Assembly (NCBI GenBank): GCA_045863235.1
Contig: BTUM01000047.1
Location: forward strand, 1 to 62,278
Direction: 5' to 3'
Length of the DNA stretch: 62,278 nucleotides
Origin: Candidatus Xenobia bacterium
Lineage (GTDB): Bacteria > Vulcanimicrobiota > Xenobia > Xenobiales > QWHO01
A program made the translations under genes and the position numbers. The first letter of the stretch is position 1. Each line of letters starts with the position of its first letter. The notes below the pieces were generated by a model. It searched no databases. It worked only from the letters and a program-made list of their open reading frames with translations, and was not told where the DNA came from. Below are positions 1,786 to 1,929 of the stretch, one piece after another.

Positions 1786-1929
1786 CGGGAGCCGGCGCGC
1801 CCCGACCTTGAAAGCCTACATACGAGTCAGACTGCTCATCTGATGGGTTCGAATCCCGACCGCCTCCGCCACGTGGAGGCGTCACCGCGAGGTGCGGAAA
1901 GCTTTCCGAACTTGCGCGCGGGAGGCCCG
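1786..1929 (+). ncRNA. Y RNA-like (YrlA-type) ncRNA 2 with a permuted tRNA-Ser(GCU)-like domain
   Basis: GCGCGC(1795-1800)/GCGCGC(1914-19) stem flanks CCCGA...CTTG; GAAAGC/GCTTTC stem; anticodon arm TCAGA-CTGCTCA-TCTGA; GGG-TTCGAAT-CCC; acceptor hairpin CGCCTCC-GCCAcgt-GGAGGCG; D-like hairpin CCGC-gaggt-GCGG; shares the CCCGACCT..GA.AG.C.TACATAC motif with ncRNA 1. Confidence 0.75.

Follow-up and report, generated by a model that had tools for sequence, protein, structure and literature searches.

What might a tRNA-like RNA be doing immediately upstream of the gene for a Ro60-like protein? The question is raised by contig BTUM01000047.1 of a Candidatus Xenobia bacterium, whose whole 62,278-nt stretch is called the window here; coordinates are those of the window and refer to the + strand unless stated otherwise. 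The element in question, which we term RNA 2, has its core at 1795-1919, and a longer outer stem extends the unit to approximately 1772-1950. We assign a probability of roughly 0.6 to the explanation that RNA 2 belongs to the Y RNAs and acts as the non-coding partner of a Ro60-like protein, the gene for which begins 75 nt downstream on the same strand, with its transfer RNA (tRNA)-like insert serving as an effector module.

A structural characteristic of Y RNAs is evident at this locus. The ends of RNA 2 pair to form a long stem with a conserved bulged helix, and both helices exhibit covariation. The RNA directly precedes a gene whose product has a predicted Ro60/Rsr fold, and this protein is presumably its partner.

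Architecture and covariation of RNA 2

In RNA 2, a C-rich bulge separates the closing stem from the inner helix, and the tRNA-like insert comes next. The closing stem (P1) pairs GCGCGC at 1795-1800 with GCGCGC at 1914-1919. Next to its 5ˊ strand lies the handle CCCGACCUU (1801-1809), composed of a CCC bulge, GA, and CCUU, and its GA might form G-U and A-U pairs with UU at 1912-1913 in the 3ˊ handle CGAACUU (1907-1913). The inner helix (P2) pairs GAAAGC (1810-1815) with GCUUUC (1901-1906). Outside the core, AGCUCCUG and its flanks (1772-1794) form the 5ˊ strand of an extended outer stem that is complementary to 1920-1944 and partly present in the minimum-energy fold. Read from the sequence, the region 1920-1950, which carries the 3ˊ strand of this stem and then UUUUU at 1946-1950, constitutes a terminator-like end, and the whole unit forms a long hairpin with a terminator-like tail of five U nucleotides. 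This 3ˊ end is not listed by the consensus terminator scan because the scan accepts loops of at most 8 nt.

The insert is preceded by a conserved, single-stranded linker (1816-1825) made of CUACAUAC (1816-1823) and GA. An anticodon-like arm (1826-1844) follows, with a stem of 5-6 bp, (G)UCAGA/UCUGA(U), whose strands UCAGA and UCUGA lie at 1827-1831 and 1839-1843, and with the 7-nt loop CUGCUCA (1832-1838). The adjoining T arm (1844-1858) has the stem (U)GGG/CCC(G) (GGG at 1845-1847, CCC at 1855-1857) and the loop UUCGAAU. In the 7-bp acceptor-like hairpin (1861-1881), CGCCUCC (1861-1867) pairs with GGAGGCG (1875-1881), and the loop between them holds G-CCA (1868-1871) and CGU, which places the GCCA sequence inside a closed hairpin. 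The order of parts is thus permuted, running from the T arm through the acceptor 3ˊ strand, GCCA, and a short linker to the acceptor 5ˊ strand, and inspection of the sequence reveals neither a true D arm nor a variable region. The insert is a circularly permuted, partial copy of a tRNA.

A first-pass annotation, made from the window sequence alone, had listed the closing stem, inner helix, anticodon-like loop, T arm, and acceptor-like hairpin, all of which are present within 1795-1919. It had also described a D-like hairpin. The corresponding structure (1883-1897; CCGC/GCGG or CACC/GGUG in the minimum-energy fold) was rejected as a D arm, given that it has no D-loop features, varies in sequence, and occurs only in the five closest RNAs, those of the genus and of one relative, being absent from six of the 11 homologues aligned.

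All of these arms appear in the minimum-energy fold of RNA 2. For comparative sequence analysis, 11 RNAs of the RNA 2 type were aligned. Five came from the genus of the window and a family next to it, and the records of the other six loci carry the labels Coleofasciculus (three), Acidobacteriota, Actinomycetota, and, in one case, simply bacterium. RNAalifold recovers four helices from this alignment, namely the closing stem, the inner helix, the T stem, and the acceptor stem, and 11 of the 26 pairs in the structure carry compensatory changes on both sides with pairing kept. Standard pairs occupy 95.8% of cells versus 84.8% in shuffles, and the covariation score is 0.394 versus 0.187, with none of 500 shuffles reaching the observed value in either case. 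Sliding the partners by 1-3 columns lowers pairing to 36-55%. Changes on both sides are found at five of nine pairs in alignment helix 1 (the closing stem), three of six pairs in P2, one pair of the T stem, and two of the seven pairs of the acceptor-like hairpin, and the latter two helices are 100% paired in all 11 homologues. The anticodon-like arm was left out of the count because MAFFT misaligned it between clades. By eye, however, each of the 11 homologues has a stem of about 5 bp and a loop of 6-7 nt that adjoin the T arm on its 5ˊ side, and the stems represent five different sequences.

A sister element, RNA 1, is located at approximately 1152-1262. Its handle is the same and its loop reads CUUUUAA; a T arm is present, as is a 5-bp acceptor-like hairpin whose loop contains ACCA. 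The two RNAs share a scaffold with compensatory stem differences, as the first-pass annotation had observed. The T-loop 9-mer GTTCGAATC is present in three copies in the window (RNA 1, RNA 2, and a tRNA-Ser gene), where 0.21 would be expected, and none of 100 shuffles of the window yields as many.

The Ro-like protein and the scaffold family

The presumed protein partner is encoded at 1996-3432 (+) and comprises 478 amino acids, with a predicted helical ring and a vWA domain carrying a DxSxS motif. Searches with this protein and with five of its relatives yielded no Pfam family at expectation values (E) up to 0.01 and no TROVE match at E up to 10. A profile constructed from 21 members of the family matches the PDB entry ‘TROVE domain-containing protein’ at E 8.4e-6 and, with an E of 0.39, also Rsr of D. 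radiodurans. The same 21-member alignment served to build an AlphaFold model that has a mean predicted local distance difference test (pLDDT) value of 88. Foldseek places Rsr (2nvo, E 5e-13) at the head of the full-length matches to this model, together with Ro60 of frog and human (1yvp, 9nfa, and 9nen; template modelling (TM) scores of 0.6-0.7), a further match is phage Ro60 (9l5y), and lower-ranked matches involve vWA domains only. Judged by this modelled fold, the gene is a very divergent Ro60/Rsr orthologue, in agreement with its earlier designation as TROVE-like. Surveys that begin with annotated TROVE proteins would miss the RNAs encoded beside this protein because Pfam does not recognize it.

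Relatives of the Ro-like protein are present in 26 of 61 related genomes, including all four of the other genomes from the same genus, and at least 544 of them turned up when each species was represented by one genome. The best 80 (63-72% identity) are mostly from cyanobacteria, with some labelled Armatimonadota, Acidobacteriota, or Actinomycetota. For this analysis, we defined a scaffold family as RNAs located beside a Ro-like gene that carry the 5ˊ anchor AAGC-Y-TACATAC and the 3ˊ anchor (G/A)ACTTGCGCG within 260 nt, and RNA 2 has both anchors and the Ro-like neighbour. Loci were scanned for the 5ˊ anchor with up to two mismatches, followed within 260 nt by GACTTGCGCG with up to two mismatches. 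There are 27 scaffold RNAs in the loci of the 30 best protein matches among the 61 related genomes (L009-L038) and 251 in 80 loci picked by protein alone, giving 275 distinct RNAs over both sets. They typically form arrays of 2-6 upstream of the Ro-like gene and on its strand, and some lie downstream. The handle is conserved as GCGCCC-Y-R-AC, and both the linker YTACAWAC and the 3ˊ handle (G/A)ACUUG-YGCG are near-invariant. The proposal of a modular family with a constant handle and exchangeable inserts is therefore borne out, and this arrangement makes the function of the insert directly testable.

The inserts fall into several classes. Some are whole, unpermuted tRNA-like bodies that score 44-55 bits on the Rfam tRNA model, and such members may be misannotated as tRNA genes because of these scores. 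Others have a permuted, YrlA-like core that includes a true D arm and reach 31-41 bits with the YrlA model of Rfam, for which the cut-off is 69, and further classes comprise the reduced RNA 2 type and short hairpins. An additional class includes nine RNAs of approximately 220 nt that contain the 12-nt sequence AGUACGAGAGGA and are mostly located downstream of the Ro-like gene (L102 4373-4591, together with L050, L078, L094, L107, L108, L109, L114, and L116). In L102, the one locus scanned, the Rfam model for bacterial large subunit (LSU) ribosomal RNA (rRNA) aligns a stretch to positions 1077-1160 with 55 bits. We take AGUACGAGAGGA to be the sarcin-ricin loop core and the 1077-1160 stretch to be the GTPase-associated centre. 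The sarcin-ricin loop is a classic toxin target. These longer RNAs look like rRNA mimics. The sequence AGTACGAGAGGA occurs nowhere in the present assembly, and therefore its 23S rRNA was not assembled.

The family extends to viruses. Thirteen contigs from a viral collection (L119-L131), most of them 70-470 kb in length, encode Ro-like relatives with 37-49% identity, and several of these jumbo-phage contigs carry scaffold RNAs with a slightly different handle beside the Ro-like gene.

Certain loci have peculiarities of their own. In L115 (15-1156, labelled Acidobacteriota), 13 tRNA genes scoring 46-72 bits are located directly upstream of three scaffold RNAs and a Ro-like gene. An extra hairpin of about 20 nt interrupts the T arm at the place of the T loop in L049 (1434-1605), L104 (124-283), and L107 (2004-2160). 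Two unpermuted tRNA-like members from one genus, in L026 (1188-1321) and L027 (- strand), have the 8-nt loops CUUGGUAA and CUGUUGAA, whereas their relatives have 7-nt loops.

Within the genome under study (G000), a strict whole-genome regular expression returns RNA 1 and RNA 2 only. A pattern written for the scaffold string of the first-pass annotation matches RNA 1 alone, as RNA 2 is one base shorter there. A looser anchor scan adds one RNA on contig C67, with 11 of its 14 matches appearing spurious, and the Rfam YrlA model returns mostly tandem tRNA genes plus one more scaffold RNA on contig C34. The genome thus has at least two further scaffold RNAs, at G000:C34:51921-52028 (L002 1501-1608, - strand) and G000:C67:171-303 (- strand). 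One of the two is YrlA-like with a real D arm, and the other is an unpermuted tRNA-like body with the loop UUUUGGA. Separately, a permuted tRNA-like element at G000:C23:89403-89650 (L001 1501-1750) scores 34.8 bits on the YrlA model. It has a T arm, an acceptor-like hairpin with ACCAC, and a D-like arm, and it is followed by an unusual tRNA to which ARAGORN assigns a 2-nt anticodon.

Comparison with YrlA and other RNAs

The closest published counterpart of RNA 2 is YrlA, which is described in two accounts (Chen et al. 2014, RNA 20:1715; Wang et al., bioRxiv 10.1101/312249). The former reports that M. smegmatis YrlA, with its 7-bp acceptor-like stem, undergoes RNase P cleavage and acquires CCA in vivo, and that the closing stem of YrlA binds Ro. 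Like RNA 2, the M. smegmatis RNA is found upstream of a Ro60 orthologue on the same strand, and both inserts are ordered as a stem-loop, a T arm, a closed 7-bp acceptor-like stem, and a further arm. RNA 2 agrees with the description of YrlA in that account in being less than 4 kb away from the Ro60 orthologue and sharing its strand, and also in having the 7-bp hairpin at 1861-1881 together with CUAC at 1816-1819, the latter being an instance, within the linker, of the YUAY sequence conserved in YrlA.

There are also differences from the YrlA features given by Chen et al. (2014). The D and T arms of YrlA are both near-invariant, whereas RNA 2 has the T arm but no D arm. The 5ˊ motif is GNCGAA(N)G in YrlA and GCGCCCCGAC in RNA 2. 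Moreover, the hairpin preceding the T arm of YrlA is a less conserved ‘V’ arm and not an anticodon-type loop, and we suspect that the anticodon-like arm of RNA 2 is the same element.

The crystal structure of Salmonella Typhimurium YrlA (Wang et al., 10.1101/312249) likewise shows a Ro-binding stem to which a tRNA-like effector module is fused; the acceptor stem-loop is closed and the UA of YUAY is conserved, and all of these features have equivalents in RNA 2. That RNA is described as one that ‘lacks the anticodon loop’ and has no free CCA end, and its handle continues from the position of the anticodon stem, whereas in RNA 2 the 7-nt anticodon-type loop is a separate element and GCCA is encoded. 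The layout of RNA 2 fits the early form that the tRNA-dimer origin model of the same account predicts. In the D. radiodurans Y RNA Yrn1 (Chen et al. 2014), a T arm is accompanied by a possible ‘anticodon arm’ whose stem has 5 bp, both reminiscent of RNA 2, but the loop of Yrn1 is 6 nt long and the description mentions no acceptor-type hairpin with CCA. Yrn1 serves as a tether between Rsr and polynucleotide phosphorylase, and no such partner is known for RNA 2.

Among members of the scaffold family, the non-permuted or canonical cyanobacterial ones share with RNA 2 an identical handle, the YTACAUAC linker, and the same protein neighbour. Their inserts comprise a whole tRNA-like body or a YrlA-like core with a D arm, whereas RNA 2 represents a reduced, permuted form. 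Circularly permuted tRNA genes of some algae and archaea are also arranged as the 3ˊ half, a linker, and the 5ˊ half, with the acceptor strands adjacent. However, those genes yield complete, functional tRNAs, whereas the tRNA-like body of RNA 2 is incomplete and interrupted by the handle.

Searches based on existing models do not detect the element. The Rfam models for Y_RNA, Deinococcus Y RNA, YrlA, and tRNA leave RNA 2 unmatched at E up to 10, and a search of the whole window at Rfam gathering thresholds gives nothing at its site. A literature search, limited to the papers available, found no anticodon-type loops in Ro-associated RNAs, no rRNA-like inserts, and no report of this protein family. 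In the absence of an Rfam match and of a D arm, and with a different handle sequence, RNA 2 is outside YrlA as presently defined. It is nevertheless probably related to YrlA and probably works in a similar manner.

By analogy with known Y RNAs, the handle would dock on the Ro-like ring in the way that their bulged stem does, and the minihelix formed by the acceptor and T stems would be handled by tRNA enzymes. RNase P might cut 5ˊ of GGAGGCG and the acceptor loop might then be trimmed to CCA, with the two resulting RNA pieces staying joined by the handle as in M. smegmatis YrlA. Such processing would be a natural expectation because the mycobacterial RNA is processed, RNA 2 encodes GCCA, and CCA is encoded in 53 of the 62 real tRNA genes of this genome. 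The tRNA-like module would then present a generic anticodon-loop shape and a tRNA-like end, and it might bring a tRNA-recognizing factor to the Ro-like protein or the protein to the factor.

Data from public sequencing runs bear on whether RNA 2 is expressed. The stretch 1130-2100 is found in 18 runs from 11 studies of sludge, wastewater, and bioreactors, and eight of these runs are recorded as RNA libraries. One metatranscriptome contains a contig over 997-1508 (depth 52), a 228-nt contig over 1731-1958 (depth 7.9) that is separate from the gene, and a third over 1981-2349 (depth 5.6), with 1512-1715 uncovered; gaps of this kind in RNA runs are not taken as evidence of absence. A DNA run covers most of 1130-2100 evenly. 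The uneven coverage in the metatranscriptome suggests, though weakly, that RNA 2 exists as a unit of its own.

Several observations weigh against the assignment of RNA 2 as a Y RNA. The sequencing runs are represented by assembled contigs, RNA libraries can contain DNA, and transcript ends are not shown. The z-score of the RNA 2 fold relative to shuffles is only -1.2 (that of RNA 1 is -4.0), and a single-sequence fold proves little. None of 4227 Rfam families gives a match that overlaps 1772-1950 when positions 1-6000 of the window are searched at E up to 10, and the YrlA model (RF02553, cut-off 69 bits) misses RNA 2 in a search of the whole genome, with its best scores of 34.8 bits or less located elsewhere. 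The published Ro-contact sequence is GGUCCGA in animals and GNCGAA(N)G in bacteria (Chen et al. 2014). We infer a resemblance of the handle to that motif, but GCGCCCCGACC does not conform to it and has only the CCGA/CGA core in common. Because the D arm is missing, a canonical tRNA elbow cannot form. A second cassette of the same protein family (G000:C28:14162-17120) has no scaffold RNA within 2 kb upstream.

Mimicry of tRNA by bacterial Y RNAs is already known, and the published family is presented as having no anticodon loop. RNA 2 and its relatives add an anticodon-type loop that combines a conserved frame with a free triplet. They also add an encoded CCA inside a closed acceptor stem and a reduced, permuted layout resembling the proposed tRNA-dimer origin of Y RNAs.

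The anticodon-like loop and alternative explanations

Alignment of homologues and tabulation of their loops, a check that the first-pass annotation had proposed, reveals that the scaffold and, in the 11 aligned homologues, the T arm are conserved and that the loop triplet varies. A scan for any hairpin with a 7-nt loop proved too noisy and was replaced by one for hairpins just 5ˊ of the T arm. A T arm is present in 173 of the 275 RNAs, and in 130 of those a hairpin with a 7-nt loop ends 0-7 nt before it. In this set, which includes some mis-registered loops and was chosen for having a stem, such that the frame statistics are descriptive only, position 32 is a pyrimidine in 111 loops, position 33 is U in 101, position 37 is a purine in 110, and position 38 is A in 84. 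Positions 34-36 are near uniform in composition, with 41 different triplets among the 130 loops. Seven of the 130 loops have a triplet that would read a stop codon and 34 have A at position 34, which argues against a use in decoding. Selection appears to keep the loop frame of Y32, U33, R37, and A38, and the combination of a kept frame and a free triplet fits a factor that reads the shape of the loop and not the anticodon.

The same trend is apparent within the genus. The RNA 2 loop is CUGCUCA in this genome, CUGCUAA in G003 and one metagenome contig, CUUCCAA in G001, G002, and one metagenome contig, and CUUUAAA in G004. The triplets across the genus are therefore GCU, GCU, UCC, UCC, and UUA, and the acceptor stem and discriminator do not change with them. 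Indeed, the GGAG...CUCC-G/A acceptor recurs throughout the RNA 2 class irrespective of the loop. Loops of RNA 1 in the genus include CUUUUAA, CUGAUAA (two genomes), and CUUAAGA. Inspection of four genomes by eye revealed no correlation that would indicate pairing of the variable triplet with the acceptor-loop linker or with the RNA 1 loop. The RNA 2 orthologue in G004 retains ACCA and has a 31-nt hairpin inserted after it in the acceptor loop, which suggests that NCCA matters and the rest of this loop does not.

These comparisons bear on the earlier suggestion that RNA 2 is a permuted mimic of tRNA-Ser(GCU). The real tRNA-Ser(GCU) at 46622 has the loop CUGCUAA, the 5ˊ end GGAGUGG, and the 3ˊ end CCACUCC-G-CCA, and its likeness to RNA 2 in the loop, the GGAG start, and the GCCA end had been described accurately. 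The permuted order also stands. The serine identity does not, in that the loop varies while the acceptor is fixed and uncoupled from the triplet, the anticodon-like stem is not copied from tRNA-Ser (the nearest real tRNA arms differ at seven of 17 positions), and RNA 2 has neither the long variable arm expected of tRNA-Ser nor a D arm. Based on the sequences compared, the apparent serine identity is best regarded as incidental, because the triplet varies in the genus while the acceptor stem stays. Likewise, what is swappable among these RNAs is the triplet alone and not a tRNA identity set.

The rate at which the triplet changes is among the evidence for the main rival explanation of the tRNA-like part. 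Here, the Ro-like particle would display imitations of translation RNAs as bait or decoys that absorb or report RNA-cutting toxins, such as anticodon nucleases, and the triplet would be under diversifying selection to match the tRNA under attack. We regard this as unlikely, and yet the most serious of the alternatives. When the RNA 2 core of this genome is compared with that of G002, three of 126 positions differ, all of them in the loop (1834, 1836, and 1837), and the changed loop positions in RNA 2 orthologues are 34, 36, and 37 with the stem kept; fourfold sites of the Ro-like gene differ by 0.138 and spacers by 0.13-0.19 between the same genomes. When RNA 1 and RNA 2 are combined, six of the eight positions 34-37 differ between two genomes of the genus at a fourfold divergence of 0.14. 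Among 34 locus pairs with a fourfold divergence of 0.05-0.15 (mean 0.117), the triplet differs by 0.42 per site compared to 0.048 for the rest of the RNA. However, in 38 pairs with a fourfold divergence of 0.15-0.30, the triplet value of 0.219 equals the fourfold rate of 0.218, as expected for plain neutrality. The pairs in these two sets are not independent of each other. The triplet may possibly change faster than neutral sites. What can safely be said is that it is free of constraint, so that the RNA imitates no particular tRNA identity.

Other findings can be read in the same light. The nine sister RNAs with AGUACGAGAGGA, of which one was shown to have the LSU rRNA-like stretch, would extend the bait to the ribosome, and the presence of the family in jumbo phages is also in keeping with this idea, as is its linkage to a small, possibly ubiquitin-like protein and an E1-like ThiF gene. 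The small protein (66 amino acids, ending in ...PEAVYG) is encoded by a conserved open reading frame (ORF) at 1311-1511 (+), between RNA 1 and RNA 2. It matches only clusters without names and shares 48% identity with a protein from a Moorena locus. In three sets of loci, it accompanies the Ro-like gene in 19 of 30, 41 of 80, and 10 of 13 cases (70 of 123); given the linked E1, it may be ubiquitin-like. Further downstream on the + strand are a second Ro-like paralogue (6169-8334) that is 45% identical and has an extra 254-amino-acid N-terminal part of no known family, a conserved protein of 275 amino acids (8356-9183), and the ThiF/E1-like protein (9039-9821). A protein of 275-300 amino acids and a ThiF/E1-like protein trail the Ro-like gene in many loci, with counts limited by flank length. 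The 275-amino-acid protein has only weak structural matches of the OB-fold type (best E 8e-4, TM below 0.25), and a protein atlas search with it returned nothing usable.

On the other side, the cassette has no nuclease or repair ligase, and PADLOC reports only a generic E1 domain match in it. No loop variant of RNA 1 or RNA 2 was seen within four sequencing runs, and a pattern scan of metagenomes gave two contigs with loop states already seen. A more elaborate version of the bait idea is somewhat more doubtful still. It holds that a Ro-like ring with one universal handle displays a changing panel of imitation translation RNAs to RNA-targeting toxins of phages or rival bacteria, with an output through the ubiquitin-like protein and E1. 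The panel would include anticodon stem-loops with faster-than-neutral triplets, CCA minihelices, and copies of the GTPase-associated centre and the sarcin-ricin loop. If true, this would constitute an RNA-bait surveillance system common to bacteria and jumbo phages.

Considerably less probable is a role in cis, in which RNA 2 would be a terminator or attenuator by which the Ro-like protein controls its own synthesis. The first-pass annotation had raised the possibility of an autoregulatory leader, and three features could be accommodated in this way: RNA 2 precedes the gene by 75 nt and shares its strand, UUUUU follows its long hairpin, and the contigs from the RNA run break between 1958 and 1981. 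However, the analysis gave no support to this proposal. Scaffold RNAs occur in arrays with most copies far from the start codon and some downstream of the gene, the protein search gave no Ro-like gene on C34 and C67, which carry the two further copies in this genome (the C67 copy is at a contig end), and a plain terminator needs no T loop, NCCA, or anticodon-type loop. The 228-nt contig of its own in the metatranscriptome is, again, only a weak hint of an independent RNA.

We consider it very improbable that RNA 2 is a genuine tRNA, split or permuted, which undergoes processing and charging and serves in translation. The 7-bp acceptor stem with G73-CCA, the canonical T loop, and the 7-nt loop with U33 are features of such a molecule, but the D arm and variable region are missing, the handle interrupts the body, and neither ARAGORN nor the Rfam tRNA model (RF00005) calls RNA 2 as a tRNA. 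In addition, position 37 is C in this genome, the UUA loop of one orthologue would read a stop codon, A34 is common across the family, and the acceptor stem stays constant when the triplet changes. Least probable of all is a decaying tRNA remnant with no function of its own, since the missing tRNA parts that favour it are outweighed by helices that covary across phyla and by a core that differs by only 2.4-4.0% between genomes whose fourfold sites differ by 14-15% and spacers by 13-23%.

Upstream of RNA 1, a promoter-like site (TTGACG, an 18-nt spacing, and TATGAT) at 903-932 and a terminator-like hairpin at 1101-1125 bracket approximately 170 nt (window 903-1130, +) where no ORF was examined. 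This region may encode another small RNA, or it may be the start of the transcript that includes RNA 1 and the small ORF.

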